A stretch of 64,000 nucleotides of DNA from an uncultured Azospirillum sp. (GCA_947301965.1 CAMYUM010000003.1:30127-94126), one strand, 5' to 3'. Shown: positions 7,341 through 29,500, counted from the first letter of the stretch. Translations and numbers: made by a program. The notes: a model not told the origin generated them from the letters alone.

Positions 7341-7417
7341 TGGTCGAAGTGACTGGACTCGAACCAGCGACCTCTGCGTCCCGAACGCAGCGTTCTACCA
7401 GGCTGAACTACACTTCG
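7341..7417 (-). tRNA. tRNA-Pro (anticodon CGG)
   Basis: reverse complement gives CGAAGTG-TA-GTTCAGCCTGGTAGAAC...CTGCG-TTCGGGA-CGCAG...GGTTCGAGTCC...CACTTCGACCA; acceptor stem pairs, anticodon loop UUCGGGA, CCA encoded. Confidence 0.85.
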
Positions 7418-7525
7418 ATAGTGCCATTATGTTTAGCACAAAAAAAATAGATGACAACCTTTTTTTTATTGCAACGGCGTTTTTTTTAATTTACGCTGTG
7501 TTTGTATTTGTTAATGGAGGGAAAT

Positions 7526-8280: not shown

Positions 8281-8357
<77 letters not shown>

Positions 8358-8362
8358 ATAAA

Positions 8363-8396
8363 AATAAAAAACCTTCCTTTATGGAAGGTTTTTTTG
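8363..8396. terminator. bidirectional terminator (ACCTTCC-tttat-GGAAGGT + T7) between tRNA-fMet and the autotransporter
   Basis: perfect 7-bp stem, A-run upstream, T-run downstream. Confidence 0.7.
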
Positions 8397-8403
8397 TTTT
8401 GAA

Positions 8404-14514: not shown

Positions 14515-14604
14515 GTCAAATCTGTATAAGTGTGGTATTACAGACTTTCCAAGTATATTTTATAAAATTTAAAAAAGTTTTAAATTTACGAGTAAAAGGT
14601 ATTT

Positions 14605-16893
14605 TTATCGTCCGTTGTTTTGGTTTTTGCTTAGTGGCAAAATAGTCTTATTGTCTCTAAGCTGTTGCTCGTCAGGTATGCTGGCAATAAGATTATTGGT
14701 TTTATAAAGCCATTGCTTGAAAGCAGGTATGTTCTCTCGGGGCAAAACATATTGCTTACTTGCGCCAAAGTAAGATAAAATCAAAATTTTTTGGTCTTTT
14801 TGCTTTTCAAGTGTCTGCCAAAGCTGTGATTTTAGGCCGTGATCTGCTACGAAGAAGCTACCATCACCGCGTTTAAGTTTCCACTGGTATATAAATTGTG
14901 CCTTAATGGTGTCTGTCTGTTCAATTTGTCTTCCTTGAACACACTGTTTCTTGGGCCTTGATGGCTTGTCAGCTGTTGTTTTAGGAGCTTTTGTCTTACG
15001 AGGTATGCTCTCACCTTTTTGATAGACTGTAAAACCACCAATTTGATAAAGTTTTTGCTTGAAAGCGGGTATGTTTTCTTTAGGCAGAACAAAAGCGTAT
15101 TGAACCTGAACCAAAAGACCATTGTTTTCTTGTTTTTTGATGGTGTTCCAGAGTTGAGATTTTTGTTTGTAAGAGAGTTTTTTCCCATCGCTTGTGAACA
15201 AACGCCATCCGGCACAAAAGGAAGTTTGTGTAATATCAGTTTCAGTCCTCTGGCGCACATGGGGAGCAGGTTTTTTAGGGAATTTTGTTTTTGAGGCAAT
15301 GATGCCTTTTTCCGTTAAAAGCCATCGTTCAAGTGCAGGAATGTTTTCTTCGGGTAAAACATAAGTTCGGTTATTGCCACTAAAAGCATAAATGAAAAAT
15401 TTGTTACGATTTAAAGATTTAAATTCCTTAAAAAGTGCAGATTTTGCTTTTGTACCCTTAATGGATTGTCCGTCAAGCCCATTTAGGTGCCAGTAGCGGA
15501 ATTGTGTTGTTGAAAGGTCGGTTTCAAGCTTTTGGCGTAATGATAGGGTGTCGTTGAGGATTTTTGTCTCTGATGCAATGATGCCCTTTGCTGTAAGAAG
15601 CCATTGCTGGAAGGCGGGTATATTTTCTTGTGGCAAGACATATTGTTTGTAAGTTTTAGATTTGCCGTGTTTAACTGGGATGAAGAGGTTTTGTTGGTTT
15701 AATAGGCATTCTTCAAAAAGTAAGGATTTGGTTTTATGATTCCAGATAGGGTCATTATTTTTATCTCTTACAAACCAAGATCTGCAAAAGTTGTTCTTAG
15801 TTAAATCAGTTTTAAGCAATTGTCTTAAGGGTTCCAGGGGTTTCTGAGCAATTAACCCTTTTTGTTTGATAAGCCATTGCTGAAAAGCGGGTATATTTTC
15901 TTGAGGTAAAACAATAACAGGATGTGCTGAAGAAACACAGACAAATAGATTTGGATTTTTGGATTTAACTTCTTCAAAGAGTGCGATTTTAGTTTCGTAG
16001 TTTAGGACTTTGCCTTTTTCAGACATTATCAGCCAAGAGGTAGAAAATTGTGATTTGGTGATATCGGTATTAAGTTTTGCTCTAACGGATTTTAGAGGCT
16101 CTTGAGCTATAATATGTTTTTTTTGCAAAAGCCAATCCTTAAAGAAATGAATGTTCTCCTGAGGTAAAATAAAAGATGTTTTTCCATGTGACGGAACCAT
16201 GATGAATAGGTCTTTGTGTTTTGAAGATTTAAACTCGTTCCAAAGAGAAGTTCTGATTGGTCCTGGCACAGATTTGCCATTTTCGTTAGTTAGAATCCAA
16301 TGAGTATAAAACTGCAGATTGGTCAAATCAGTTTCAAGCACTTTTCGTTGAGATTTTCTTGTTTTTGAAGCTGTAATGCCTTTTTCTTCAATAAGCCATT
16401 GTTGAAATGCAGAGATGTTTTCCTGTGGTAAGGCGAGGGCGGAAAATCCGGTAGTTGAAGCGGTGACGAAAAGTTCTTGATGTGAATTTCGAAAAGTGTT
16501 CCATAGATTGATTCGATCTTGAATGGTGGGGGCTTTGCCGTTTTTGTCTCTTAAATGCCAAGAATGCACAAAATTGCTTATTAAAAGATCCGTATCGAGC
16601 TTGGGTCTTTGTGACTTGGCCAAAATAAGGCCTTTTTCTGCCCAAAGGCGTTTTTTAAAAGCAGGAATGTTTTCTTCGGGTAAAACGTGAATGAAGTGAT
16701 ATTTTGCTGAAAGCTGAATAAAGAGTTCGGGGGCAAATAACACAAGTTCATCCCAAATCTTTAGTTTTTGTTTTCGGTCAATAGCTTTGCCGTTTTGGTC
16801 CTTCAGACCGCATGCTTTGAAGAACTTGTTTCGGGTTAAATCGGTATCAAGTTTGGTGCGTTCATTTTGAGTAAAAGGAGATGTCTCTTCCAT
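14605..16893 (-). CDS. tandem-repeat protein (762 aa; ~8 units of ~88 aa with VLPQENIPAFQQWL...KGIIA and KLxTDLTxxxF..W motifs); function unknown
   Basis: self-similarity obvious in the translation; no signal peptide; Lys-rich. Confidence 0.75.
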   Translation of the reverse strand: MEETSPFTQNERTKLDTDLTRNKFFKACGLKDQNGKAIDRKQKLKIWDELVLFAPELFIQLSAKYHFIHVLPEENIPAFKKRLWAEKGLILAKSQRPKLDTDLLISNFVHSWHLRDKNGKAPTIQDRINLWNTFRNSHQELFVTASTTGFSALALPQENISAFQQWLIEEKGITASKTRKSQRKVLETDLTNLQFYTHWILTNENGKSVPGPIRTSLWNEFKSSKHKDLFIMVPSHGKTSFILPQENIHFFKDWLLQKKHIIAQEPLKSVRAKLNTDITKSQFSTSWLIMSEKGKVLNYETKIALFEEVKSKNPNLFVCVSSAHPVIVLPQENIPAFQQWLIKQKGLIAQKPLEPLRQLLKTDLTKNNFCRSWFVRDKNNDPIWNHKTKSLLFEECLLNQQNLFIPVKHGKSKTYKQYVLPQENIPAFQQWLLTAKGIIASETKILNDTLSLRQKLETDLSTTQFRYWHLNGLDGQSIKGTKAKSALFKEFKSLNRNKFFIYAFSGNNRTYVLPEENIPALERWLLTEKGIIASKTKFPKKPAPHVRQRTETDITQTSFCAGWRLFTSDGKKLSYKQKSQLWNTIKKQENNGLLVQVQYAFVLPKENIPAFKQKLYQIGGFTVYQKGESIPRKTKAPKTTADKPSRPKKQCVQGRQIEQTDTIKAQFIYQWKLKRGDGSFFVADHGLKSQLWQTLEKQKDQKILILSYFGASKQYVLPRENIPAFKQWLYKTNNLIASIPDEQQLRDNKTILPLSKNQNNGR

Positions 16894-17063
16894 TAAATCA
16901 ATCCTTATAAGGAGTCAATCTAATTGCCGGGTATAACAGATTTGGGCGGAAAAGTCAATGAAGTTTTGTCCAATATGTCCATTCTAAAAAATGTAAGAGT
17001 TTTTAGGAGTTGCGGACTGTTTTTACATAAATTTAATATATTTTTTTGCTGTTTTGTGTTATC

Positions 17064-18353
17064 ATGGACAAAGATAGGGTGATGGAGACTGCTATGGCTG
17101 AAGATGAGGTAAATGAAGATAAAATCAACACTGAGGGATATAAGCGAGATGCGCAATATCAGGTTGATACCCTTAAAGGTGAATTGTTTAGTGCGGGTGG
17201 TTTTAACCTGACGACAAATGCGTTGACTCTCAATTATTCCGGAGATGACTGGTTTGGAACGGCTTGGGCAGAGCATTATACAACTCTGATCCATGAGCTT
17301 CATCATCATGATAATGCATGGGGGGGAATGTATACATATCCGGTAAGCGCCGAGCAGGCCTATAAAATAAATATGCATGATGAGATTTCGGCCAACCTGG
17401 CAGAGTTGGTTGCGATGCGTGAAGAATATTTGAAAAGCGGAGATATTTCGGTTTTTGATGAAAAGGGCAGTAAGTTTGATTTTTATAAAGAGGCGATTGA
17501 AAATGGCAAAATAGAAGTAAACAGCCAAAATGTTTCTAAATTTAATGATGAAATGGGTTTTATGGCTAACGGAGTCCGCGATATGTGGGAACGTGATCGT
17601 GCAGAAAGTTATATTAAACAAAATTCGAGTAACGCAAAACTTTTTTATGATAAGAGTGGAAAATATGGTCGATATTATGATGAAAATTATCAACGGGCGG
17701 TCAAAAAAGCCTATGATATCGGTGGTATCAATTTCAGTGACTACATGGACAGAGATGTCAATATTCCCGAAAAAGGACGGGAGGCGCTTGATGCAATAAA
17801 GTCGCGGAGCAACGAAATAAGTTTTGACAATAATGTTAAAAATGAACCGATTAACAGCCTTCCGCCGCGCGAGCCGGGGTGGCGTGAGCATGAGGATAAG
17901 GACGGCAGTCGGTTTTCTCCGGTGCAAACAAAATCGATAGTTGATTTAAGAAAACCCGTAATTAATCGTCCGCGGGGCTATGTGGGAGCGGAACAGGGGC
18001 AGCAGGTTAGGTCACCTTCTGACCATCCGGAAGCAAATAGAAAAGTTTTAGTGGAAAAAATGCAATCTCAACCATCTGAAAGGACTGCAAATAATTTTGA
18101 AGAATTAAGAGCAAGATTTAGTGCGGATCATGAGCGTTTGCAACAAGTGCGTGAAAAGTTGGGAAATGGACATGAAGAATTATCCTCGGAATCAAAACTT
18201 TCGGAACATAATCAGGCATCGGGAAAAAGTCTTGCCGAGATAATAAGAGAAAAAAGATTTGAATCGGCAACTCCAAGCCGTCCGGCAAATACACAGCCGT
18301 TTTCCAGAGAAGCAATGCAACGAGCTATGTCAGACCGGCAATCCGGCAGATGA
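17064..18353 (+). CDS. HExxH-motif protein (putative zincin-like metalloprotease fold) with long low-complexity C-terminal tail
   Basis: TLIHELHHHDNAWGG motif; the opposite-strand ORF 16920..17927 has I/F-rich antisense composition; start may be 17064, 17082 or 17095 (GGAGA RBS before 17095). Confidence 0.6.
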   Translation: MDKDRVMETAMAEDEVNEDKINTEGYKRDAQYQVDTLKGELFSAGGFNLTTNALTLNYSGDDWFGTAWAEHYTTLIHELHHHDNAWGGMYTYPVSAEQAYKINMHDEISANLAELVAMREEYLKSGDISVFDEKGSKFDFYKEAIENGKIEVNSQNVSKFNDEMGFMANGVRDMWERDRAESYIKQNSSNAKLFYDKSGKYGRYYDENYQRAVKKAYDIGGINFSDYMDRDVNIPEKGREALDAIKSRSNEISFDNNVKNEPINSLPPREPGWREHEDKDGSRFSPVQTKSIVDLRKPVINRPRGYVGAEQGQQVRSPSDHPEANRKVLVEKMQSQPSERTANNFEELRARFSADHERLQQVREKLGNGHEELSSESKLSEHNQASGKSLAEIIREKRFESATPSRPANTQPFSREAMQRAMSDRQSGR

Positions 18354-18394
18354 GTTTGAAAATACTATAATTTGATTTTTTTGAAAGGTGGAAA

Positions 18395-18661
18395 ATGAAA
18401 AAAGCTATATACCTGTTTTTGTTGTGTTTGTTATTGCCGGCGTGTCAGGAGCTTGACGGTTTGTTAAACACAAACAATTTTGTTGTTTCAGAAGCCGATG
18501 ACAATCGCATGGTGGTGTTGAACACCAATACGCGTGTTTATCACGACCCAAAATGTAAAATTGCAAAAAGTTGCTCTAAAAATTGTGTTGTAACGACAAA
18601 ATACGATGCAAAGTCAAAAGGAGCAACCGCCTGCCAAAAGTGTAACGGCGGTAATAAATAG
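18395..18661 (+). CDS. small Cys-rich lipoprotein (88 aa; lipobox LLPAC; YHDPKC...C..C zinc-ribbon-like motif)
   Basis: signal + lipobox; six Cys; GAAAGGTGG RBS. Confidence 0.6.
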   Translation: MKKAIYLFLLCLLLPACQELDGLLNTNNFVVSEADDNRMVVLNTNTRVYHDPKCKIAKSCSKNCVVTTKYDAKSKGATACQKCNGGNK

Positions 18662-18682
18662 TTTAGTTTTTTACAAAAAAAA

Positions 18683-18716
18683 GCGGAACAGCTAGTGCTG
18701 TTTCCACTCTTTTTTG
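18683..18716. terminator. bidirectional terminator between convergent genes (GGAACAGC-tagt-GCTGTTTCC + T-run)
   Basis: A8 upstream, T6 downstream. Confidence 0.65.
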
Positions 18717-18733
18717 ATGTCTTCGAGGTGAGA

Positions 18734-19945
18734 CTAGTTTTTGGCAAAGAAGGTGATGTAGCCTGTAGCGGCTTTTCCGTTAATGGTCATCTGGATTTTG
18801 ACTTCGACGTTGTAGATGTCGTCTTCAACGCTGGTCCAAGTGGTTTTAATGACTCGGACACTGTTTTCATCAAACATCATCTTGTCGGTCAACGGCTCAT
18901 ATAATATGCCATTATCAAGGTACACGTTTTCACGCTTAAACGCTATTTCTGTGGTAAAAACACCAAGATCCAGCTCCAGAATATCGGTATGTAATGTCTT
19001 GAGCAGATATGGAGATCCGCTGGAGAGTTTTTCAATCGACTTGGCATCGATCTTGAGTGTTGCCTTTTTGAACTGGAGGTCTGCACGGTTTGCAATTTTT
19101 ACCACATTGCCATTTGCAGGATGATAGCTGGTGTTTTCGCCGTAAGCATAAGCCGTTTCGGTAAATGTTTCAGTGTCCTTGGTTCCATCGGAATATTCCG
19201 ATGTTACTTTTGCCTTAGAAACAAAACCGGCACGCCCATCCTGATTTTTCAGGGGCAGCAAGCTTTTCTCTACCATATTGCTGGACAGGATATACTTGCC
19301 GTTTATCTTTTCAATCGGGCGTGAAGCTACAACCTCGTTGGTTACAACATAAGTTTCGCGGTTAACCATCACTGTAATTGAGTGATTGTAGATTCTGCGA
19401 GCATAGGCTTTACCATCCTTTTCTACCGAACTGGCGCTTTTTACGGTCATATCATTGTTGACAATCTCGTCATAGCCATAGTATGGCATTGTTATCTTGG
19501 TATAGCCGTCATCGTATTCAGCCACCTGAAAGGTGAGAGGATACTCAAATTTGATTGTGCCATAATCAACCGTATATACCTGTACCGAATCGGTAGTTTT
19601 GATGTATGCGTCGTGTTTTGATGCAGTTGCTTTGCGAGATGTTTTGACTTTTGGTTCATAAGTTGCCCAGTTGGCAACAGTCACATTTTCTTTCACGTTT
19701 TTTAAGCTGTTGATCAGCTCAATCGAGAACTTACTATCGAATTCAGCTCTGGTCTGACCATATACCTGAATCCAGCTTTTGTAAGAGATAGTAGTACCGC
19801 CGTCATTGGCTTCAACAGTCACAGTGGCATCTCTGCCACTGTCGGCAACCTCGCTGGTTGCAATGTTAGAGATAAAGGTCTCCTTCTCGCATGCGGCGAG
19901 GACAATCACCGCCAAGGCAGCGATGATGGTGTTCACGTGTTTCAT
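18734..19945 (-). CDS. lipoprotein of unknown function (403 aa), GC-rich/foreign codon usage
   Basis: MKHVNTIIAALAVIVLAAC lipobox; hand-counted GC ~57% in a 60-nt sample vs ~32-38% in backbone samples. Confidence 0.7.
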   Translation of the reverse strand: MKHVNTIIAALAVIVLAACEKETFISNIATSEVADSGRDATVTVEANDGGTTISYKSWIQVYGQTRAEFDSKFSIELINSLKNVKENVTVANWATYEPKVKTSRKATASKHDAYIKTTDSVQVYTVDYGTIKFEYPLTFQVAEYDDGYTKITMPYYGYDEIVNNDMTVKSASSVEKDGKAYARRIYNHSITVMVNRETYVVTNEVVASRPIEKINGKYILSSNMVEKSLLPLKNQDGRAGFVSKAKVTSEYSDGTKDTETFTETAYAYGENTSYHPANGNVVKIANRADLQFKKATLKIDAKSIEKLSSGSPYLLKTLHTDILELDLGVFTTEIAFKRENVYLDNGILYEPLTDKMMFDENSVRVIKTTWTSVEDDIYNVEVKIQMTINGKAATGYITFFAKN

Positions 19946-20135
19946 AAGCTATAGGATTAAATATTGTTTGACAAAGACCATTAATCAAAATTTTCATCAC
20001 CGGCAATTGTTTGCCTTTTTTTCTAATGATAGCATTAATAATTTTGATTTGAGATTATGTTTTATACCCAGAGGGCGGTTTTTGTCAATATTGTTGAGTT
20101 GAATGATATTGTAAAATTCGGTGCATATGAAAATA

Positions 20136-20175
20136 CGAAAAAACCACTGCAGAGCAAATGCCTGCAGTGGTTTTG
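20136..20175 (-). terminator. rho-independent terminator for the 208+142-aa gene pair (CCACTGCAG...CTGCAGTGG; T-run on minus strand)
   Basis: 9-bp perfect stem; A8 on plus strand is T8 on the minus strand, immediately downstream of the stop at 20188. Confidence 0.65.
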
Positions 20176-20187
20176 GGTGTAAAGATT

Positions 20188-20616
20188 CTAGCTAGAGGAG
20201 AGCTCGGAAAAGTTCTGTTTCTGCAAGATTTGCTTGTAGTTGGAATAACCATTCCTGTCAAACTTCTCAGCGTAGAAGTGTAGGGCGCGATCGTAGAGAG
20301 GAAGTAATTGATATTCCTTTGGACGGTAATCGCAGGGATGCTCCAATACTCTTTCGGTCTCGGAAAGCAGTCTGTTGCACAGGGCATGCTCCAAACCGGC
20401 AGCAAGGCGTTTGAACATCGGCAATTGCGGACGATAATCTTCTCCCTTAGGACCGCTGATCCACTCGATTCGCTGCTGTGCGAGAGCCCAGCAGATCATA
20501 GTCTCGGGAGCTCCTGCAGGGAGAACTTGGTCTTTTACCTGCCACAGTACACCATCAGCATAAGCGACATTCTTGATTGCGGCGTCAAGAAGTTGTCTTT
20601 TTACTTCGTTGTTCAT
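20188..20616 (-). CDS. hypothetical protein (142 aa), GC-rich block
   Basis: ORF with non-biased composition; ~50% GC; no recognisable motif. Confidence 0.55.
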   Translation of the reverse strand: MNNEVKRQLLDAAIKNVAYADGVLWQVKDQVLPAGAPETMICWALAQQRIEWISGPKGEDYRPQLPMFKRLAAGLEHALCNRLLSETERVLEHPCDYRPKEYQLLPLYDRALHFYAEKFDRNGYSNYKQILQKQNFSELSSS

Positions 20617-20668
20617 GGTACAGGGGATTAAAAATCTACATAATCGTGCCTGTTATGTTTGGCAACAA

Positions 20669-21295
20669 TCAATACTCCTCGGCATCGCAGATGACTTTCT
20701 GGTTCACCATCATGTCAGGCAAGCCGCCTTTCATTCCGTAGAGAATGACGGTTGAGACATGGCGATCGAGGATTCTGTCGTAGATATCATGCAGATTCAA
20801 AGAATCTACCGTTATCTCGAAGGCTTTGACTCGGTCCAAATCCACGCTGGGTGGAATCTGCGAAAGGACTTCGTCAGTTCCGGGACGGAAAAAAACATAG
20901 TAGCCGCCGTACCTGTGATAGCAGGTAAACGAGGTAATAACCTCTAGTTCCGGCACTTCCAGGGGGACATCAGTTGTTCCGGTGTTGATGGTTACGATGT
21001 TTTCCGGTTTGAAATTGTAGAGGTAGCTCTGCCGGATATCGCACGGTTTGACGAACACGAGCTTGTCATCGGGCTTAAAATCTCCGTAAGAACGCTTGTC
21101 GCCGTTTCTGTCCAAGCGGACCAGTGGCTTAATTTTTACCGCACGCCTGGTGAGCTCATCAATGGGCATTTGATCTGCCTCTACGATGTGGCGATAGAGC
21201 GTGGCATAATTTTTAAGAGTGATGCCGCAAACCTCTTGCTTCAGTCTTTCCCCGAAAGAGTGAAGTTTTTCCTCGATGTAGTCTGAGTTGTACAT
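20669..21295 (-). CDS. hypothetical protein (208 aa), GC-rich block, likely co-transcribed with the 142-aa gene
   Basis: ORF; ~48% GC; 52-bp spacing to downstream gene, same strand. Confidence 0.55.
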   Translation of the reverse strand: MYNSDYIEEKLHSFGERLKQEVCGITLKNYATLYRHIVEADQMPIDELTRRAVKIKPLVRLDRNGDKRSYGDFKPDDKLVFVKPCDIRQSYLYNFKPENIVTINTGTTDVPLEVPELEVITSFTCYHRYGGYYVFFRPGTDEVLSQIPPSVDLDRVKAFEITVDSLNLHDIYDRILDRHVSTVILYGMKGGLPDMMVNQKVICDAEEY

Positions 21296-21398
21296 ATTGA
21301 AGGGTTTAAAATAATGGGAATAATTCTTATAAAACTGTGCTTTCTATATCATTTTTGGACAAAAAAGTCAAGTTTAAAACTGGAAGAAAGTTTTTTAT

Positions 21399-22361
21399 CT
21401 ATAAGATGACCCTTTTGATAATGATTAAATATTGAGCATATAAATATGCCACATAACAACAAAACATGAAAAGACCTTCGCAACGTCTTAACTTGTCTTT
21501 ATAAAGCAACAAAGGTAATAATAACGTTGTTGAGGCTAGCATAATCCATATGTCAAAAACAAAAAACTGGTATGAGATCTTGACGTCTAAAATAGATGCT
21601 GTGATTCCCATGATAAGAACGATATTCCAAATATTGGATCCCATTACATTACCAAGGGCAATGCCGTTTTGGTGGCGATACGCAGCAACACAGCTTGTAG
21701 CAAGTTCGGGGGCTGATGTTCCGACAGCAATAATGGTGAGCCCGATGACTTCTTGTGAAACACCGCATAAGCTTGCCAGGTTGGCAGCTCCTTTTACCAA
21801 AAAATCTGAACCATAAATAATCCCAGCCAGTCCGATAATGGTAGCTAACAAAATATAGAGCCAATTTTTTCCGATTAAATTGCCGGGAATGTCCAAATCA
21901 GTCTCGTCTTTATTACGCCGAAGCATATAGTAGTTGTAAAATATAAACCAGAATGAAATTAAAAGTAAAACCCAACCGTGCCAACGAGACAGTGTCCCTG
22001 TTAAGCAAAAACATACAAAAATCAAAGTGGTAAAGAACAAAAATACAAAATCACGTATAAAGGCGTTTTTGTTCACGTTAATAGGATAGATTAGGGCAGA
22101 TAGTCCGAGGACAAGTAAAATATTGGCAATATTTGATCCAATAACGTTGCCAAGTGAGATTGCGGAATTTCCGCTAATTGCGGCTTTAACACTAACGGTT
22201 AGTTCAGGCAACGATGTACCAAGTGCGACAATGGTCAAACCAATAATGAGGGTCGAAATTTTTAAGCGATTTGCTATAGCGACAGCACCAAGTACAAAAA
22301 AGTCAGCGCCACAAAGGAGGAATATCAGTCCAATTAAAATAAAAATAACAGCAGTAAGCAT
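21399..22361 (-). CDS. Ca2+/cation antiporter, CaCA family (YrbG-like Na+/Ca2+ exchanger)
   Basis: duplicated alpha-repeat motifs GTSLPEL and GTSAPELATS; 10 TM; AT-rich native-like codon usage. Confidence 0.8.
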   Translation of the reverse strand: MLTAVIFILIGLIFLLCGADFFVLGAVAIANRLKISTLIIGLTIVALGTSLPELTVSVKAAISGNSAISLGNVIGSNIANILLVLGLSALIYPINVNKNAFIRDFVFLFFTTLIFVCFCLTGTLSRWHGWVLLLISFWFIFYNYYMLRRNKDETDLDIPGNLIGKNWLYILLATIIGLAGIIYGSDFLVKGAANLASLCGVSQEVIGLTIIAVGTSAPELATSCVAAYRHQNGIALGNVMGSNIWNIVLIMGITASILDVKISYQFFVFDIWIMLASTTLLLPLLLYKDKLRRCEGLFMFCCYVAYLYAQYLIIIKRVIL

Positions 22362-22460
22362 TTTTAGTCTCTTTGAAAGTTGTACCGACGAAAGTATATA
22401 TTACAATAAAATAAAAGCAATAGATATGTTAAATAACGATTCGGTTTGATACTGCGCATA

Positions 22461-22490
22461 AAAAAAAGCACTTTTTAGGTGCTTTTTTTT
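22461..22490. terminator. bidirectional terminator overlapping the stop of the 148-aa gene (AAGCAC-loop-GTGCTT + T8)
   Basis: A7 / hairpin / T8. Confidence 0.55.
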
Positions 22491-22921
22491 ATAAAGTTGC
22501 CTTGATAACGGAGTTTTGCCGGCTGATTTCCGCCGTAATAATCCGCACTCAGGGTGTTGAATTCATTGTCGTCAAAACCAACCAGCCAACCACAACCATG
22601 CATATAATTACTGTCGGCCAAATAGATGCCTTCAAGTAAAGGTTGTTTAAGCTCGGTCAAATGTTGGTTCAACTGTTCTTTGATTTTGAAAACTTCGTTA
22701 CAAAAGCTAACATCTAGCAGGCGCTGTGTATTGACATCACGGTCGGTGTGCTTTTTGTTTTCGCATTCCTCAAGTTCGATGTAGCGATTGTCTTCGGCAA
22801 AAGGGAAGATGGCTATCGGCTTTAATAAATGACGAAAGCTGAAAGGCAGGCGAACCATTTTGTCATCGTCATAGACGTAGAGTAAATCAAAAGCGTTGGG
22901 TTTACGTTTATTTTTTTCCAT
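22475..22921 (-). CDS. hypothetical protein (148 aa)
   Basis: ORF; moderate GC; own terminator; 275-bp AT-rich upstream region. Confidence 0.5.
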   Translation of the reverse strand: MEKNKRKPNAFDLLYVYDDDKMVRLPFSFRHLLKPIAIFPFAEDNRYIELEECENKKHTDRDVNTQRLLDVSFCNEVFKIKEQLNQHLTELKQPLLEGIYLADSNYMHGCGWLVGFDDNEFNTLSADYYGGNQPAKLRYQGNFIKKST

Positions 22922-23204
22922 TTTAATAATATGACCGTGTCCTTGGCACGGGGTTTAATATTTATATAATAATAGTCTTTTGTTGCGTGTAACATATATA
23001 GGGATACAACATAAGTCAACATTAAAATCAGGCGTATATAGAAATTGAAAATGAAAAAACTTGGTTTTACCACTCTTTAGAAAGGGAGGCTTTAAATTTT
23101 GGTTTTATGTTAAAAAATAGATTTTATTATGTGAAAAATTTGAAGATATTGTGGAATGATGCTCTAAATTGGGAGTATCTGAAAATAAAAAGCGAGCGAA
23201 CAAA

Positions 23205-23240
23205 ATCCGCAGAACATGTGTTCTGCGGATTTTGATTCGG
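23205..23240. terminator. terminator with 12-bp perfect stem (ATCCGCAGAACA-tg-TGTTCTGCGGAT) immediately downstream of the 151-aa gene
   Basis: read directly; T-rich flanks on both sides. Confidence 0.7.
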
Positions 23241-23246
23241 ATTTTC

Positions 23247-23702
23247 TTAAATTTCATACCCACGATAACGTAGGATTTCGATGGTTAAACGCCCGAACAT
23301 GCGAGCTCTTGCGGCGTATTTCATGCATAAATCTCCATGGTTCGTAACGTCTACAGCTATGTCTGTGCGAATATCCCAAAGAGTAAATAAATCCAAAGGG
23401 GCCGTTTTAGGATCAGGCAGTTTTTCCAGATGGTAGAGCATACTATCAACATACAAATGCAAAGCCGCATCTTCCTTTGATAACCTCTCTTTGTTTAGGG
23501 CTTTTTTACAAACATCTGTCTGTACCAGGTCTTTTTGGAGGCCTTCGAAGCACATGCTTTCGTAGTGGCGTCGTGCCAGTAAGCAGGTTGTAGCAATGGG
23601 GCATGTTTTGCATTTGTTGCCACCAACATTGTAGTAGTTGGGTTCTAACTTTGGCTCGGAAGCGAATTCAAAGCCGACATCAAAAGGTGTCAACGGTTCC
23701 AT
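23247..23702 (-). CDS. hypothetical Cys-cluster protein (151 aa; CKTC-x5-C-x10-C)
   Basis: ORF; ~50% GC; metal-binding-like Cys spacing near N-terminus. Confidence 0.5.
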   Translation of the reverse strand: MEPLTPFDVGFEFASEPKLEPNYYNVGGNKCKTCPIATTCLLARRHYESMCFEGLQKDLVQTDVCKKALNKERLSKEDAALHLYVDSMLYHLEKLPDPKTAPLDLFTLWDIRTDIAVDVTNHGDLCMKYAARARMFGRLTIEILRYRGYEI

Positions 23703-23880
23703 AATTTAATAATGCATGGACTTTTACCATAGCAAGTTTTCTTGAGTTATATTTTAGATAATATTGTTAATAATTAGATAATGGATTCGGAGGGTAGATG
23801 AATTTTATCGAAAAAGCAAGAAAAAATTATATAGGATGTGGCTTTATTATTTAGTTGAACGAGACTATGAGTGTGATATT

Positions 23881-23921
23881 TATAATTTTAAAAGAAACCG
23901 CTCCCCCGGTAGGGAGAGCGG
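23881..23921 (-). terminator. terminator for the 160-aa gene (CCGCTCCCC-cggta-GGGAGAGCGG, T-rich on minus strand)
   Basis: imperfect 9-bp stem 18 nt downstream of stop 23939. Confidence 0.5.
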
Positions 23922-23938
23922 AAGATATGCAGGAACTT

Positions 23939-24421
23939 TTAATTCTCCTTCTTTTCTTTTTCCGTCACATACATTGCCTCGCGGCAGTGATAACACTTGG
24001 CCTTGTCCTCGGCGGTGTTGACGGCGTTGATGAGGTTTTCGGGCAGGGGGTGATCCCACTCGCCTTGGTCGTACTTGTTGACCAGAATGACCTCGATTTT
24101 TCCCTTTGCCTGTTCACCTTCGCCCTCTTTGAAGGCTCTGGTAATCCGGTAAACCTCGTGGATGAAGTCGCCTCTGTGGTGGTACGACTTGATGAGGTAG
24201 TAACCGGGGTGGACGGGAACGAGCGCGTGTTGCGCGCAGGATAAATGCCCGCCGCGGCGGATGTAGGTGGCTGTTGGCTTGGTGCCGTCGGCCTTGCAGA
24301 TGATGGTGGCATCACCTGTGTTTGTTGCTCCGCCGCCTTCCTCCCATACAGAAACGAGACCGCTCTTGGTGAGAGGAGCAAGCAAAATTGTGCCTTGGTT
24401 TTTCTTATTCGCCATACACAA
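23939..24421 (-). CDS. hypothetical protein (160 aa; His/Cys motifs SCAQH...SYHH...CYHC, possible zinc-finger/His-Me-like)
   Basis: ORF; ~48-60% GC; start may be the MANKK ATG at 24415. Confidence 0.5.
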   Translation of the reverse strand: MCMANKKNQGTILLAPLTKSGLVSVWEEGGGATNTGDATIICKADGTKPTATYIRRGGHLSCAQHALVPVHPGYYLIKSYHHRGDFIHEVYRITRAFKEGEGEQAKGKIEVILVNKYDQGEWDHPLPENLINAVNTAEDKAKCYHCREAMYVTEKEKKEN

Positions 24422-24737
24422 AAATTTATTTTCCCGTGAGCAGTTCCATTGAATATGATGTTTTTATCTTTCCGACTTTAATCTTTCCCTGTAACACGTA
24501 GTCACAAACCATAAAATGGCGGGCAGTTTGCACATACTCTTTCAGTCGTAGTCAATAAGTAACATATTCGTTGGAATATGCCGGCTCTTGGGGTGCTTTC
24601 TATTGGTTAATATTATTTTGACGGCTTGCATTTGACATAATCAAAAGGAAAGCTCAAACGCGCCAAAACTACTAATTGTCATAATAATCAAATGACAAAC
24701 TTGATTATAGCATATTTTTTGAAGGTTAACAAGAGGG

Positions 24738-25949
24738 TTATTGCTCGGAAGAAACCAGTTCGGCAAATTTTTGTGCCATGGTGGGGTTGTTTTTGGTCAA
24801 TTTCTTTACCGAAAGATCTTGAGCTTTGTTATTGGCAAGCCGCAGGTTGCTTTCTGATGACAAGAGAGCGTCTTTGGTCTTTTGCAGGTGGTCTATGGTC
24901 TTGTCAATCTCCTCAATGGCTTTGCGAAATTTGTCGCTGGCCAATTGATAATTACGCCCGAATTTTTCTTTGAAATCGTTCATGTCATCTTCAAAGTGAG
25001 AAATATCAATGTTTTGATTTTTATATTCGACCAATTGACGGCGGTATTGCACCGAATTTAGGGCGGCATTGCGCAAAACAGTTATCATTGAAATGAAAAA
25101 CTGGGGGCGAATTACATACATTTTGGGGTATTTGTGAGAAACATCAACAATCCCGGAATTATATAGTTCGTTGTCGGATTCCAAAAGCGAGACCAAAACC
25201 GCATATTCGCAGCCTTTTTCCTGGCGGTCTTTGTCAAGTTCTTTGAAAAAGTCCTCGTTTTTGTGTTTGGTGGCGGTGGTGTCCATCTCGTTTTTCATTT
25301 CAAACATAATGGAGATGAACTCAATGCCGTCGGTAGTGCTTTCGCGAAAAATATAGTCGCCTTTGCTACCGGTGCGGGCATCGTTGTCTTTTTCAAAATA
25401 AGCATTAGGAAAAGCACCGGCGCGGATTTTGTTAAACTCGGTCTCACAATGTTGTTCCAAAGTTTCGCCGACCATTTTGGTAGACATTTTGGTTTTGAGA
25501 TCTTTATAAAACTCAATGGTTTCGTCTTTGGCTTTGAGCTGAATTTCAAAATTTTCTTTTAGAGATTTTTCTTTGATTTCGCTGTCTTTTTCAGTTTCTT
25601 TTATCTTGCTTTCAAGCAAAATAATTTTTTGGTCTTTGGCGGCAATCTCGTCTTTTTGTTGATTAATGGCGTTAGTTACGGCGAGTTCCTGCGCTTGTCT
25701 GCCGCTTTCAATTTGGGATTTTAGGCGTTCAATCTCTTGTTTGAGTTCGGAGAGGCTTTTTTCTTTTTCGGCTTGTGCCTGGGTGGTCAACAGTCTGAGT
25801 TCAATGTCTTTGTCTTTAAGGAGTTGACGCTCGCGTTCCTGCAGGTCTTTAGTAAATTCGCTGTTGCGAACCTGGCTGACAATGGCGGCATATCCGCTCT
25901 CATCAACAGTAAAAACTTCGCCGCATTTGGGGCATTTGATTTCAGGCAT
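24738..25949 (-). CDS. DUF2130-like protein: N-terminal zinc ribbon (CPKCGEVF), long coiled coil, C-terminal globular domain
   Basis: [24 protein letters not shown] start; heptad-rich 40-170 region; architecture matches DUF2130 family as I recall it. Confidence 0.6.
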
Positions 25950-26024
25950 AACAATACTCTCCGTTTGACAAATTGTACGATATTGCGTACTTTATACTAA
26001 AATATTTTTGCAGGAAAGAAAAAA

Positions 26025-26873
26025 ATGAAAACAGCGTTGGTACTTGAGGGCGGGGCAAAAAGAGGAATTTATACCGCAGGTGTGCTTGATGTGATGTTGG
26101 AGCATAATTTGCTGGTTGATGGTGTGTTCGGAGTTTCGGCGGGGGCAATACACGGTTGTTCTTATGCCTCAAAGCAGATCGGCAGAAGTATCCGTTACAA
26201 TATTAAATACGGAAATGATTATCGTTTTATGAGTTTTAAGTCGTTGTTTTTGACCGGAAATATGGTCGAAACCGATTTTTGTTATCACGAACTGCCGGAA
26301 AAACTCGACCCCTACGATAATGAGGCATTTATGAAATCGGGGATTGAGTTTTATGCCGTATGTTCAAATGTTGAAACGGGAAAACCGGAATATATAAAAT
26401 GCAAAGATATGTTTGCCGAAATTGATTATATAAGAGCTTCAGCGTCTATGCCGCTGGTTTCGCAAATTGTGGAAGTCGGCGGAAAAAAACTGTTGGACGG
26501 AGGAATTGCTGACAGTATACCGTTGAAGGCGGCAGAACAACACGGCTTTGAAAAAAATATTGTGGTCTTGACACGCCCTAAAGGATATCGCAAAAAATCA
26601 GCGTCACTAAAATGGCTGGTGGCGTGGGTTTATCGCAAATATCCGAAATTTGTTGAGGCATTTGCAATGCGTCCGGATATGTATAATGCCGAACTTGATT
26701 ATATCGAAAAACAGGAAAACGCCGGCAAAGCTTTGGTGATCAGTCCAAGTCGGCTGGTAAAAATTAAAAAAATGGAGTCGAATTTGGATATTGTGCGTGA
26801 AATGTACGAATTGGGACGGCACGACGCATTGAAAATGCTTGATAAAATCAGTAAATATATAAAATCTGTCTAA
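26025..26873 (+). CDS. patatin-like phospholipase
   Basis: oxyanion GGAKRG and nucleophile elbow GVSAG (GxSxG) at the expected spacing; size 282 aa. Confidence 0.8.
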   Translation: MKTALVLEGGAKRGIYTAGVLDVMLEHNLLVDGVFGVSAGAIHGCSYASKQIGRSIRYNIKYGNDYRFMSFKSLFLTGNMVETDFCYHELPEKLDPYDNEAFMKSGIEFYAVCSNVETGKPEYIKCKDMFAEIDYIRASASMPLVSQIVEVGGKKLLDGGIADSIPLKAAEQHGFEKNIVVLTRPKGYRKKSASLKWLVAWVYRKYPKFVEAFAMRPDMYNAELDYIEKQENAGKALVISPSRLVKIKKMESNLDIVREMYELGRHDALKMLDKISKYIKSV

Positions 26874-26887
26874 TTTTGACAAAATTC

Positions 26888-26916
26888 TTGCTAATAGTTT
26901 AAAACTGTGTTATATT
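26888..26916 (+). promoter_or_regulatory. promoter candidate TTGCTA-17-TGT-TATATT (extended -10) upstream of the 188-aa gene
   Basis: spacing and TGn motif read from sequence. Confidence 0.35.
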
Positions 26917-26952
26917 GCGATAAAACTTCATTATTAACTAAAATTCTTATGT

Positions 26953-27519
26953 ATGGAAAAAATCGCAAGCTACTTTCGATTTGACATTACGCAGACAGTG
27001 CAGGTTTTGCTCTATAAAATGCGTATGGGAAACGGCAAGCGCTGGTCGGTTGAAAAAACTGCCGGCGGGCTGATTTTGCACCAGATTTATGAAGAAGGTG
27101 CAGAAAAAGAGGACAACCAAACCAAGGTCGAACTCAAGGGAAAACATACAATGATTATCACTACGGTGAGCGGGTTTGTGTACACAATTGTGGATAAGGA
27201 ACCCGACGGCGCCGAGGTGAGCTTTCATGGTCCGCTCAATGCGTTGCTGATGCAGTCGCTGATGCCGCGCATGACCTATGTCCCCGGGACGCTTATCGGC
27301 ATGAACAACCTGATGGACGACTACGTCTCTATAGGTGAGTATATGCGGTTGCGCCAAGAACGTCACAAAGGTAATGGTGAAGAAAATCCTCAAGACCGGT
27401 TCGGATGGCGTATCAATATGCGTTTCAACAACGAGCTGGTGCCGTGGTTCCCGGCCTTTAACGGCAACAAAAATGTTCCCAAAGACAAGGTCAGGAAAGG
27501 CAAGTTTACCCGTCGGTAA
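26953..27519 (+). CDS. hypothetical protein (188 aa), GC-rich orphan
   Basis: ORF; ~50% GC; own promoter candidate and terminator. Confidence 0.5.
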   Translation: MEKIASYFRFDITQTVQVLLYKMRMGNGKRWSVEKTAGGLILHQIYEEGAEKEDNQTKVELKGKHTMIITTVSGFVYTIVDKEPDGAEVSFHGPLNALLMQSLMPRMTYVPGTLIGMNNLMDDYVSIGEYMRLRQERHKGNGEENPQDRFGWRINMRFNNELVPWFPAFNGNKNVPKDKVRKGKFTRR

Positions 27520-27532
27520 TTTTGAGTTAGTA

Positions 27533-27566
27533 AAAAGGGTTCGGAGTGACGAACCCTTTTTATTGT
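27533..27566 (+). terminator. rho-independent terminator (GGGTTCG-gagtga-CGAACCC + T5)
   Basis: 7-bp perfect stem after the stop at 27517-27519. Confidence 0.7.
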
Positions 27567-27584
27567 TTTAAAGAGCAAAAACTT

Positions 27585-27620
27585 TAAAAAAAAGACTGCG
27601 GAACTTGGAGACCCGCAGTC
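27585..27620 (-). terminator. rho-independent terminator for fadL (GACTGCGG...CCGCAGTC; T9 on minus strand)
   Basis: 8-bp stem 24 nt downstream of the fadL stop. Confidence 0.7.
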
Positions 27621-27644
27621 TTCTAACAACTAAACTATGCGAGT

Positions 27645-28889
27645 TTAGAAGTTATATTGGAACTGAACGCCAACCATGTTACTGTAGTTGTCATGTCTGG
27701 CTTTGATGTTGCTAACTTCTCCAAGAGGAGTATAGCTTGTTTCATCAGTTCTGCCCTTGCTCATGAACAAGTGGGCATAACCGACGTCAACCTGCCAGTT
27801 CTTTGCCTGATAGCTGACACCGAGTGTGGTCCACAAACGGTTGGAATCAGGAATACGGGCCGTGCGGTGGAATTTATCACGAATCGGTGTCGGGTCGTAA
27901 GAAATACCGGCACGGAACGTCCACTCAGGAGAGTAGTAATAATCTACACCCAAAGAATAAGTCCAAGTGTTTTTCCATTTTTCCGGAACGGCTGCAGTGA
28001 TACCAGTGGTCGGAGAACGCATTACAAAGTCATCAAAGATGTCCCATTTGGTCCAACGAACGGCACCAGAAAGACCAAATTTGTCATTGAGTTTGTGATA
28101 CCCAGAAATTAATAACTGGCTCGGTAAGGTCATTTTTGAAACGCCGGGATATGTGCCATCCTTAGCTGTGCCGGTGCGTTTGATTGTATGGTCTCCGGTA
28201 ACTTTTTGAGCAGTATTCAGGCGGTAAGAAACACCGAAACGAGTGTCTTTGACCGGTTCATACATAATACCAAAGTTGTAGGCAAATTCCCAACCGTCCA
28301 AGTCAAATTCGTTACGAGAGTTCGGCATAAGTGGGTGAGCAGTATTTATAATATCGCCGTGAACATAACGATAGATTAAGCTTGCGCCTAAAGTAACCTG
28401 ATCAGTTACCTTATAAGCTCCGCCGAAAGCTACGTCAACAACATCCAATTCAGTACTGATACCATGATGAGCCCCGAACCATTCTTTGTTGTAAATAGAA
28501 GCCAAGCCGAACGGAGTATAAACACCACCACCAATTACAGCCTTATCATTGATTTTGTATTGTGCGAATCCCGACGGTAAGAACTTATAAAAATTCATTT
28601 TTCCGTAAGGTTTGTCAGCGACGGGGGTGCCGTTGTAATAGGTTGTTCCATCAACAAAAGAGTGCATTTGAACGGTTGATAAACCTAATTGTCCGCCGGT
28701 GCCTTTCAAGATCATACCGGCAGGGTTGAATGAAATAGCAGAATAGTCATCACCGACCACGCCGATGCCGGCAAAAGCGCGGCCAAGACCTGTGGCAGAG
28801 TATTCGTTGAGTTGATAGCCTGATGCATTGGCATTATTAGCGGCAACCAAGCTCAAGCCCAGCAATAAAAACTTAGTGTAGTTCTTCAT
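27645..28889 (-). CDS. fadL: outer-membrane long-chain fatty acid / hydrophobic compound transporter, FadL/TodX/OmpP1 family
   Basis: signal peptide then SGYQLNEYSATGLGRAFAG N-terminal motif; C-terminal aromatic residue (F). Confidence 0.8.
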   Translation of the reverse strand: MKNYTKFLLLGLSLVAANNANASGYQLNEYSATGLGRAFAGIGVVGDDYSAISFNPAGMILKGTGGQLGLSTVQMHSFVDGTTYYNGTPVADKPYGKMNFYKFLPSGFAQYKINDKAVIGGGVYTPFGLASIYNKEWFGAHHGISTELDVVDVAFGGAYKVTDQVTLGASLIYRYVHGDIINTAHPLMPNSRNEFDLDGWEFAYNFGIMYEPVKDTRFGVSYRLNTAQKVTGDHTIKRTGTAKDGTYPGVSKMTLPSQLLISGYHKLNDKFGLSGAVRWTKWDIFDDFVMRSPTTGITAAVPEKWKNTWTYSLGVDYYYSPEWTFRAGISYDPTPIRDKFHRTARIPDSNRLWTTLGVSYQAKNWQVDVGYAHLFMSKGRTDETSYTPLGEVSNIKARHDNYSNMVGVQFQYNF

Positions 28890-29019
28890 GAAATTAGTCC
28901 TAGTTGTTAACGAAATAAATTTGTTGCTAATACTAAACAGTTGTGTTATTTAGTAAAGTAGGCACCGTGAGGGATAATAGGTTCCATTCGGAAACTATTG
29001 TATATTTTCTGCGACTGAG

Positions 29020-29418: not shown

Positions 29419-29500
29419 TATATTTAACTTGCTTTTAACCTCATTTTAATGAATAATGTATAGTATGTAGTCTAAATACTTTTAGACGGGGATTCGCGCT

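Follow-up and report, generated by a model that had tools for sequence, protein, structure and literature searches.

The stretch from tRNA-Met (8357) to fadL (27645) in an uncultured Azospirillum sp. is probably a flexible part of the chromosome (a plasticity zone) that took shape in multiple events; it is neither a single mobile island nor a demonstrated effector island. Locus content differs between species and is fixed within the species, breakpoints are intergenic, the cargo is under purifying selection, and tracts of divergent alleles form a mosaic. The window, by which we mean the whole 64,000-nt stretch analysed (GCA_947301965.1 CAMYUM010000003.1:30127-94126), is chromosomal DNA of an uncultured rumen alphaproteobacterium, in which the initial annotation had singled out positions 16894-27644 as an accessory region. 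The comparison set comprised five related rumen alphaproteobacterial species at 70-82% nucleotide identity between species, the nearest being L009. All relatives are metagenome-assembled, each locus is visible over ~10 kb from an anchor gene, and each event was called a gain or a loss by parsimony over the five species from these metagenome-assembled loci.

A conserved scaffold and its borders

Backbone order is kept over the five related species and runs PgpA, tRNA-Met, a first slot, DUF2130, patatin, the 188-aa gene, a second slot and fadL. The scaffold and tRNA features of the window are:

7149-7167, minus strand: att-like repeat, an exact 19-nt duplicate of the 3' end of tRNA-Pro, 175 nt downstream of tRNA-Pro
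7341-7417, minus strand: tRNA-Pro (CGG), its 3' end pointing left toward a second, smaller variable slot
7502-8011, plus strand: PgpA, conserved backbone gene between two outward-facing tRNAs
8281-8357, plus strand: tRNA-Met (CAT), actual left border of the variable interval
24738-25949, minus strand: DUF2130 protein (Pfam), conserved anchor that closes the main variable interval on the right
26025-26873, plus strand: Patatin+DUF6363 phospholipase (Pfam), conserved anchor
26953-27519, plus strand: 188-aa protein, conserved anchor, GC3 0.61
27366-27586: deletion point, with two lipoprotein genes (~1.2 kb) in L002, L003, L009, L007 and L016 and neither of them in the window species
27645-28889, minus strand: fadL, which flanks the region on the right and is an allele-replacement tract too

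Patatin orthologues in L002, L003, L009 and L016 share 78-88% amino acid identity with omega values of 0.06-0.09, and the patatin+DUF6363 protein has no signal peptide. DUF2130 adjoins the tRNA-Met region in the more distant L016, is also found in L009 and is missing from L002 and L003. The 188-aa protein had been labelled an orphan, which is contradicted by its orthologues, kept in synteny in four related species (55-76% amino acid identity, omega ~0.09, all GC3-high), and by a search of 1.8 billion proteins that yielded 44 representative clusters. The double terminator reported at 27.5-27.6 kb is indeed present as two convergent hairpin/T-run terminators (27536-27560 and 27586-27625). Domain searches identify FadL, HxlR and an S8 protease among the neighbouring genes outside the region, and beyond fadL on the right the alignment to L009 is a single HSP of 10.6 kb.

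Homology to the sister species L002 stops 47 bp past tRNA-Met (8357), where variable DNA begins. Comparison thus places the left border at the tRNA-Met 3' end, 8.5 kb to the left of 16894, and the right end before DUF2130 (~24.7 kb); the true flexible interval spans ~8358-24737, plus a small slot beside fadL. Neither border of the initial annotation survives, since position 16894 falls within a species-specific block (14404-18349), and the DUF2130, patatin and 188-aa genes (24.7-27.5 kb), which lie inside a right border at 27644, are conserved in related species. Both tRNAs had been positioned correctly. With the borders reset by comparison, the statement that no tRNA lies at them fails: variable DNA reaches the tRNA-Met 3' end, and the statement holds only for the coordinates originally drawn.

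A 26-nt tRNA-end repeat is present at tRNA-Met in L002, and homology between L002 and the window breaks off exactly at the 19-nt tRNA-Pro repeat (7149-7167). Because such tRNA-end repeats exist in the clade, we conclude that site-specific integration has occurred there at both tRNA-Met and tRNA-Pro. No further copy of the tRNA-Met 3' end was found in the 64-kb window (last 17 or 25 nt, up to 3 mismatches). The search of the flanks for att or inverted repeats that had been proposed recovered the tRNA-Pro-end repeat; it recovered neither a tRNA-Met repeat nor direct or inverted repeats at the block junctions, all of which are intergenic.

Species-specific cassettes interleaved with older genes

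Gene sets differ among the window, L002, L003/L012, L009 and L016 in the slot between tRNA-Met and DUF2130/patatin, and likewise in the slot between the 188-aa gene and fadL. The variable genes and blocks of the window, at positions where ORF calls agree with those given earlier, are:

8404-14514, minus strand: PMP-repeat autotransporter, 2036 aa, first cargo gene past tRNA-Met
14404-18349: species-specific block 1, repeat protein and HExxH protein
14605-16893, minus strand: 762-aa eight-repeat protein, block 1
17064-18353, plus strand: HExxH protein, block 1
18395-18661, plus strand: 88-aa Cys-rich lipoprotein, lipobox LLPAC, weak Ada_Zn_binding match
18661-22460: species-specific block 2, four minus-strand genes
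18734-19945, minus strand: 403-aa lipoprotein, block 2
20188-20616, minus strand: unk142, block 2, GC3 0.54
20669-21295, minus strand: unk208, block 2, GC3 0.61
21399-22361, minus strand: CaCA antiporter, block 2, Pfam Na_Ca_ex
22475-22921, minus strand: unk148, common to L009 (92% amino acid identity, omega 0.08)
23027-23888: replacement slot, unk151 in the window versus a glycosyltransferase in L009
23247-23702, minus strand: unk151, 151 aa, replacement slot
23939-24421, minus strand: unk160, GC3 0.68 (the highest), common to L009 (87% amino acid identity, omega 0.10)

When compared with L009, the window has three species-specific blocks (14404-18349, 18661-22460 and 23027-23888) and one deletion. 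The L009 counterpart of the block 1 site is a ~300-bp divergent intergenic region; block 2 separates the 88-aa stop codon from the unk148 terminator, having been inserted into a gap that measures ~29 bp in L009, and the unk151 site is occupied in L009 by a 309-aa TOD1/MUCI70-like glycosyltransferase. The autotransporter is found in L009 and L003/L012 and not in L002 or L016, and the 88-aa lipoprotein (omega 0.06) is common to L009 only. The distance from patatin to tRNA-Met is 1.6 kb in L002 versus 17.7 kb in the window, the L003/L012 locus carries a different autotransporter and a glycosyltransferase, and the order in L016 is tRNA-Met, DUF2247, DUF2130, a lipoprotein, patatin, the 188-aa gene, ~6 kb of other cargo, two lipoproteins and fadL. 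Presence and absence are thus nested and interleaved over the five related species, which requires several separate events and bears out the earlier description of the region as mosaic and repeatedly hit.

Within the species, five independent conspecific assemblies are collinear with the window at 95-99% identity. The supporting contigs (JGI 3300010998 and 3300011002; Logan SRR14597533 and SRR22585850; ENA ERZ3810914; one NCBI assembly) cover 12.4-32.9 kb. L018/L021, L022, L023, L019, L020 and L011 are collinear, and their differences are limited to indels of less than 100 bp and tracts of allele replacement; presence/absence variation at the strain level was not seen among the conspecific assemblies. 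Full synteny in relatives, named in the initial annotation as the observation that would count against an accessory region, therefore exists inside the species but fails across species. Sharp low-identity tracts among conspecifics coincide with the autotransporter passenger domain (70-89% identity), unk142, CaCA and fadL, the last being 83% identical at the nucleotide level to conspecific contigs despite 100% identity in neighbouring genes. Diversity is lowest in block 1 (99.4-100% identity), as expected for a recent arrival or a sweep.

Gene content, composition and selection

Pfam matches in the region are limited to Na_Ca_ex, DUF2130 and Patatin+DUF6363, plus the weak Ada_Zn_binding match, and nine unknowns returned zero matches in NCBIfam, PHROGs and PADLOC. 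Of the two lipoproteins that had been described as Cys-rich, the 88-aa one is and the second is not. The absence of mobility genes was confirmed: scans of the annotated genes of the region with Pfam, NCBIfam and PHROGs found no integrase or transposase domain in any ORF of at least 80 aa, and no mobility gene, integrase included, was detected in the window or in the related loci examined (~10 kb per locus). The largest intergenic gap is 325 bp, and a large decayed mobility gene therefore cannot fit. The region shows no similarity to any phage, plasmid or viral contig. Lagging-strand genes are overrepresented in it (10/14 versus 10/44 elsewhere, p=0.0024).

Mean GC3 in the window is 0.42 (sd 0.066). 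Values above 0.53 occur in 4 of 13 region genes and in 0 of 44 elsewhere in the window (Fisher p=0.0018), and composition is native-like in the genes for CaCA and HExxH. This supports the uneven composition noted earlier but not its reading as recently foreign, since GC3 in the GC3-rich families remains high among orthologues at dS >1.6 and among homologues from other genomes. As high GC3 is kept past synonymous saturation, composition gives no arrival date; the deviation appears to be a stable trait of gene families and not a sign of recent import. Omega is 0.03-0.2 where synonymous divergence is informative, which covers all unknowns but the repeat and HExxH proteins, and shows that the unknowns tested evolve under purifying selection.

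The products are mostly envelope or surface proteins (the autotransporter and two lipoproteins) and small cytoplasmic proteins (six), with no shared function or secretion link evident among them. In the HExxH family the H-E-x-x-H and D-E residues are invariant, and its homologues in other gut Alphaproteobacteria lie amid ribosomal and housekeeping genes. The unk208 fold is predicted with high confidence (pLDDT 92); the model has no PDB match and resembles only uncharacterised giant-virus and siphovirus proteins. The unk160 family comprises 16 clusters among 5.8 billion proteins, one of them from a thaumarchaeon. Elsewhere, cargo families occur one at a time and in unrelated contexts, homologues of unk208, unk160 and HExxH being found at unrelated loci. 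It seems quite improbable that unk142, unk208, unk160 and the 188-aa protein are undescribed 'wandering' cargo families of gut and rumen Alphaproteobacteria with a shared role, for example in phage or mobile-element conflict. On that reading their composition, with GC3 0.13-0.25 above the local background, also in unrelated genomes, would be actively maintained.

Origin of the region

A scaffold of PgpA, tRNA-Met, DUF2130, patatin, the 188-aa gene and fadL is kept across related species, and we propose that the gaps between these genes gain and lose small self-contained cassettes of one to four genes, each with its own promoter and terminator. At least three layers may be distinguished: the old autotransporter; a middle layer common to L009 (88-aa lipoprotein, unk148, unk160); and a recent species-specific layer made up of the repeat and HExxH proteins, of the lipoprotein with unk142, unk208 and CaCA, and of unk151. 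The two lipoprotein genes next to fadL would have been lost in the window species. Entry would have been mostly by recombination where insertions are tolerated, presumably through exchange of homologous flanks with relatives that have diverged and through illegitimate insertion into gaps at terminators and promoters, and past integrase-mediated events at the tRNA-Met and tRNA-Pro 3' ends may have turned the neighbourhood into a hotspot.

Differential loss, in which a large ancestral region was deleted in different parts by each species, L009 included, and the window keeps more of it, would explain why five relatives have two lipoprotein genes beside fadL that are gone from the window species, why DUF2130 is missing in L002 and L003 yet present in the more distant L016, and the native-like composition of CaCA and HExxH. 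It is nevertheless unlikely, as it requires many independent, precise deletions sparing short intergenic regions, such as the one terminator that the 88-aa gene and unk148 share in L009; moreover, every species has unique slot genes of its own, unk208, unk160 and HExxH have homologues at unrelated loci in other genomes, and block 1 diversity within the species is near zero. The interleaving of layers, with new blocks lying between older genes and not nested outward from the tRNA, also makes it distinctly unlikely that the region is a single classical island inserted by a tyrosine recombinase at the tRNA-Met 3' end, whose integrase and distal att repeat have since been lost. Such an island would account for variable DNA starting 47 bp past tRNA-Met, for the tRNA-end repeats (26 nt at tRNA-Met in L002, 19 nt at tRNA-Pro in the window) and for the lagging-strand bias, but its cargo families are never found together elsewhere, the 64-kb window has no integrase, no tRNA-Met repeat and no gap above 325 bp to hide a decayed gene, and similarity to phage, plasmid and viral contigs is lacking.

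A functional reading, that of a co-selected set of secreted or host-directed products (HExxH protease, patatin phospholipase, lipoproteins, autotransporter), draws on the predicted surface location of the autotransporter and two lipoproteins and on the invariant HExxH-family residues; some known effectors also contain patatin domains. We regard it as very unlikely, because the patatin with DUF6363 is kept at the site in all close relatives and lacks a signal peptide, the HExxH homologues sit among housekeeping genes, six products are small and cytoplasmic, the genes arrived at different times, and Pfam, NCBIfam, PHROGs and PADLOC revealed neither a secretion-system gene nor a domain typical of effectors, toxins or immunity proteins, nor any match to a defence system. 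Judged from sequence, the 'effector island' of the initial annotation is therefore unsupported. The metagenomic type of the source and the uneven composition could hint at a chimeric contig joining unrelated DNA, an assembly or binning artefact that is hardly credible and is refuted for 12.4-32.9 kb by collinearity at 95-99% across independent samples and assemblers. A flexible region built up in multiple events is the reading that we prefer.

Comparison with known systems

Two pitfalls are illustrated by this locus: borders of an island read from a single sequence may be wrong by kilobases, and a 'foreign-looking' codon composition may be an old, stable family trait. Its practical value lies in a catalogue of function-unknown proteins that are conserved and under selection and by which species of the clade differ, among them the HExxH family, the eight-repeat protein and one apparently new predicted fold.

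Classical genomic or pathogenicity islands are defined by a tRNA site, flanking direct repeats, an integrase, deviating G+C content and instability. Like them, the region adjoins a tRNA 3' end, has some genes of deviating composition and carries surface proteins in its cargo; unlike them, it has no integrase and no flanking repeat, is of multi-event origin and shows stable family composition. Nor does it resemble an anti-phage defence island or orphan immunity array, as PADLOC gave 0 matches for ten proteins and Pfam no immunity domains. In plasticity zones of the Chlamydia type, one interval concentrates the differences between collinear species and holds surface, phospholipase-like and unknown proteins without mobility genes. 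The pattern here is similar, but lineage and genes are unrelated and the analogy is descriptive only.

The tRNA-flanked islands of Prochlorococcus are shaped by tycheposons and form heterogeneous aggregates that are immobile as a unit (bioRxiv 10.1101/2020.12.28.424599). Shared with these are a setting beside tRNAs, Pro and Met(CAT) among them, the location of most genes outside an active element, and partial tRNAs as marks of older events. In contrast, no tyrosine recombinase with a replication module was found in the window, L002, L003, L009 or L016 (~10 kb per locus), and the sole partial tRNA copy in the window is that of tRNA-Pro, outside the region first noted. In the additive flexible islands of Alteromonas, the commonly used sites include tRNA-Met and tRNA-Pro (PMC4898812). 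Both systems have a fixed tRNA-adjacent site between core genes, differing and mostly hypothetical cassettes, and occasional partial tRNA repeats (PMC4898812). However, the published content is usually strain-variable, whereas here five conspecific assemblies have identical gene content and differences exist only between species; the window is also without an integrase, and its new blocks are interleaved, not stacked at the tRNA. The region is of a known kind, that of tRNA-adjacent additive islands, and adds nothing fundamentally new on genomic islands; it offers a worked example, from an uncultured rumen lineage, of a tRNA-adjacent interval that gathers unrelated cassettes and keeps no mobility gene.

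Gene content of the region between tRNA-Met and fadL

The window has a G+C content of about 41% and a strongly positive GC skew. An initial annotation had singled out 16894-27644 as an accessory region of about 10.7 kb that looked like an integration hotspot or 'effector island', and its list of ORFs for 16.9-27.6 kb matches the ORFs that we called there. Proteins of unknown function are named unk followed by their length in amino acids.

Features of the region (window coordinates, strand where assigned, description)
7341-7417, tRNA-Pro (Rfam)
8281-8357, tRNA-Met (Rfam)
17064-18353, plus, HExxH protein (ORF)
18395-18661, plus, 88-aa Cys-rich lipoprotein with lipobox LLPAC (ORF)
18734-19945, minus, 403-aa lipoprotein (ORF)
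Between the 403-aa lipoprotein and DUF2130, all minus, unk142, unk208, CaCA antiporter, unk148, unk151 and unk160 (ORFs)
20669-21295, minus, unk208 (ORF)
23939-24421, minus, unk160 (ORF)
24738-25949, minus, DUF2130 protein (ORF, Pfam)
26025-26873, plus, patatin+DUF6363 protein (ORF, Pfam)
26953-27519, plus, 188-aa protein (ORF)

From tRNA-Met to fadL the DNA measures 19.3 kb and is compact, with 2.1 kb of intergenic sequence and a biggest gap of 325 bp; the gap between the 188-aa gene and fadL holds two convergent terminators. Genes on the lagging strand make up 10 of the 14 in this interval versus 10 of 44 elsewhere in the window (p=0.0024). Domain scans found no integrase or transposase among the region's ORFs, as the annotation had stated, and Rfam across 5-30 kb returned nothing beyond tRNA-Pro and tRNA-Met. 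Recognition by Pfam was limited to Na_Ca_ex, DUF2130, Patatin/DUF6363 and a weak Ada-type zinc motif, and for the remaining proteins searches of NCBIfam, PHROGs, PADLOC, Pfam and PDB sequences were empty or at chance level.

Borders placed by gene order in related species

We compared the region with loci of related rumen alphaproteobacterial species, of which L009 is the nearest and L016 more distant.

Gene order at the related loci
L002: fadL, two lipoproteins, 188-aa gene, patatin, two small genes, tRNA-Met, PgpA, tRNA-Pro, homologues of the window's 4-6 kb genes
L003/L012: after patatin, a different autotransporter and a glycosyltransferase, ending in an orthologue of the 2036-aa autotransporter
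L009: fadL, two lipoproteins, 188-aa gene, patatin, DUF2130, unk160, TOD1/MUCI70-type glycosyltransferase, unk148, 88-aa lipoprotein, autotransporter
L016, tRNA-Met side: tRNA-Met, DUF2247 gene, DUF2130, lipoprotein, patatin, two membrane ORFs, 188-aa gene
L016, fadL side, following on that 188-aa gene: other genes over about 6 kb, two lipoproteins, fadL

L002 is decisive for the borders. The distance between patatin and tRNA-Met is 1.6 kb in L002 versus 17.7 kb in the window, and the left-hand homology between the two stops at window position 8404, 47 bp past tRNA-Met, which contradicts the earlier statement that no tRNA lies at the borders. L002 and L003 are collinear over 13.3 kb at 81% identity, stopping exactly at the 5' end of patatin. 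On the right-hand side of fadL, a single 10.6-kb HSP of 82% identity joins the window and L009; left of fadL the alignment is fragmented. By these gene orders, the anchors that the related species conserve include DUF2130, patatin and the 188-aa gene, which are thus no accessory genes, and the variable DNA runs from 8358 to about 24737, with an additional slot beside fadL, instead of following the limits first proposed. The patatin orthologue of L009 (13027-13871) is split into a 243-aa ORF and a 42-aa tail in another frame, which could reflect either a frameshift or an assembly error.

Breakpoints and tRNA-end repeats

Differences between the window and L009
14404-18349, window only: eight-repeat 762-aa protein and HExxH protein, a divergent pair (block 1), where L009 has a divergent intergenic region of about 300 bp
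18661-22460, window only: lipoprotein, unk142, unk208 and CaCA (block 2), bounded by the 88-aa gene's stop codon and the unk148 terminator
23027-23888, replacement: unk151 where L009 has a glycosyltransferase
27366-27586, missing in the window: two lipoprotein genes

Junction alignments revealed neither a target-site duplication nor an inverted repeat, and no repeats beyond chance were found at these comparative breakpoints or at the initially proposed borders, whose flanks the annotation had suggested searching for att or inverted-repeat sequences. Two related traces exist at tRNAs. A perfect copy of the last 19 nt of tRNA-Pro lies 175 nt downstream of the tRNA (7149-7167 and 7341-7359, minus strand), and this repeat is kept in L002 (16498-16514 / 16688-16704). 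The second copy is the exact point at which window and L002 cease to be homologous; beyond it the genes differ per genome, the window having an APH-like kinase (6210-7115). PgpA thus sits between two outward-facing tRNAs, each directed toward a variable slot. L002 also contains a 26-nt direct repeat comprising the last 20 nt of tRNA-Met plus 6 nt (15265-15290 and 15489-15510), the copy lying 220 nt downstream of tRNA-Met and preceding L002's own two-gene cargo. It is an att-like scar that the window lacks: nowhere in the 64 kb does the tRNA-Met 3' end recur. The two repeats together indicate that site-specific integration has taken place at both tRNA-Met and tRNA-Pro in the clade.

Composition of the region

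G+C at third codon positions (GC3) exceeded 0.53 in 4 of 13 region genes versus none of the 44 elsewhere in the window (Fisher p=0.0018), namely unk142 (0.54), unk208 (0.61), unk160 (0.68) and the 188-aa gene (0.61); the window mean is 0.42 (sd 0.066). Because of this excess and the lagging-strand bias, the 'mosaic composition' noted earlier is real. The GC3 excess is spread generally over codon classes. In five species (window, L002, L003, L009 and L016) the 188-aa gene lies 0.13-0.2 above its neighbours despite saturated synonymous divergence.

Do these values mark recent import? The GC3 of the 188-aa gene is 0.48-0.61 in four species at dS 1.6-4 and always exceeds that of its neighbours; something other than recent transfer maintains it. 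Likewise, the GC3 of unk160 stays at 0.62-0.64 both in L009 and on an unrelated contig of 37.5% GC, and unk208 homologues in two other genomes have 0.53-0.56. Since orthologues and homologues of these three genes keep a raised GC3, it is probably a lasting trait of the gene families and not a timestamp of import, and the comparison does not support reading the 'foreign-like' genes as recently foreign. Translational selection is an unlikely cause, given that the window's most conserved long genes have a GC3 of 0.32-0.39. Nor is an antisense gene overlapping the 188-aa gene needed: the antisense frame is open because a GC3-rich gene lacks TTA, CTA and TCA codons, and the sense frame has a selection ratio (omega) of 0.09.

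Cargo proteins and their origin

Every cargo gene with an orthologue at informative synonymous divergence had an omega of 0.03-0.2, indicating purifying selection; the repeat and HExxH proteins are near-identical among conspecifics (dS about 0), so that omega says little about them. The 762-aa protein (14605-16893) is built from eight tandem repeats, each 84-93 aa long and bearing the motif YVLPQENIPAFQQWL. It had no convincing family match; every conspecific assembly has it at 99-100% identity, and none of the related species examined contains it. About 45 clusters (430-760 aa) make up the family of the HExxH domain, in which H77, E78, H81, D106 and E107 are invariant and which appears confined to gut and rumen MAGs. 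Its members adjoin gapR and ribosomal protein genes and sometimes occur as tandem paralogues; the confidently predicted core had no Foldseek match in the PDB. For unk208 we found 41 related clusters, the named ones all from Alphaproteobacteria MAGs with identity grading from 88% to 33%, and one homologue is located among leuS, lptE, holA, recJ and mfd. Its AlphaFold model is confident (pLDDT 92, pTM 0.88); Foldseek gave no match in the PDB (best E 1.3), and the only proteins that the predicted model resembles are uncharacterised ones from the giant viruses Edafosvirus and Klosneuvirus and from a siphovirus (E 4e-6 to 1e-3, TM about 0.46). Only 16 relatives (clusters) of unk160 occur among 5.8 billion proteins. 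A Nitrosocaldaceae archaeon MAG has one of these, 49% identical and surrounded by unannotated genes, and another lies near a PcfJ-like gene on the 37.5%-GC contig; GC3 is high in all of them (L029, L033). The 188-aa protein has 44 representative relatives.

Age layers of the cargo are interleaved along the chromosome, with new blocks between genes shared with L009 and those between older anchors, a pattern that fits neither a single island nor serial stacking at an att site. A co-moving module is rejected, as nowhere else do two of the island families share a locus. A phage or plasmid origin is rejected too: DNA similarity was limited to one chance-size 51-bp match, three IMG/VR scans found no relatives, and tblastn of unk208 against phages and of unk160 against plasmids gave no match.

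Variation within the species

Searches anchored on fadL and patatin returned MAGs only; these come from rumen and gut and carry the label Alphaproteobacteria or Rhodospirillales. At least five independent samples and assemblers yielded contigs that are 95-99% identical to the window and collinear with it over 12.4-32.9 kb in single alignments. The arrangement is no chimera, and gene content is fixed within the species. Conspecific identity is 98-100% outside sharp low-identity tracts, which comprise the passenger of the 2036-aa PMP-repeat autotransporter (8404-14514; 70-89%), unk142 (88-90% in two contigs), CaCA (91% in two others) and fadL (27500-29000). The latter shows 83-89% nucleotide identity to all conspecific contigs (86-88% aa, dS about 0.8), while genes on both sides are 99.6-100% identical among the same contigs, and the allele of a different species, L001, is slightly closer to it (85.0% nt) than conspecific alleles are (83.1%). 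This outer-membrane protein gene looks like a case of allele replacement or long-lived polymorphism, and the tracts as a whole argue for frequent homologous replacement with diverged donors in this region. Block 1 is the least diverse segment within the species (99.4-100%), which suggests recent arrival or a sweep.

Two further observations concern the autotransporter genes. That at 8404-14514 contains a perfect 300-nt internal repeat (11262-11561 = 12246-12545) in tandem units of about 1 kb, and the S8 protease autotransporter differs between conspecific contigs by small indels in a Gly-rich low-complexity linker (29500-30500).

A probable multi-event flexible region

As judged from comparative sequence data, the region is best described as a multi-event flexible region adjoining tRNA-Met. 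The initial annotation is confirmed for gene content and composition and not for the borders and the tRNA; its notion of a repeatedly modified hotspot is supported, while the effector island and the recently foreign genes are not. Comparable cases are found in Alteromonas, with its additive flexible islands (PMC4898812), and in Prochlorococcus, where tRNA-flanked islands occur (bioRxiv 10.1101/2020.12.28.424599); unlike these, the region is fixed within the species and carries no mobility gene.
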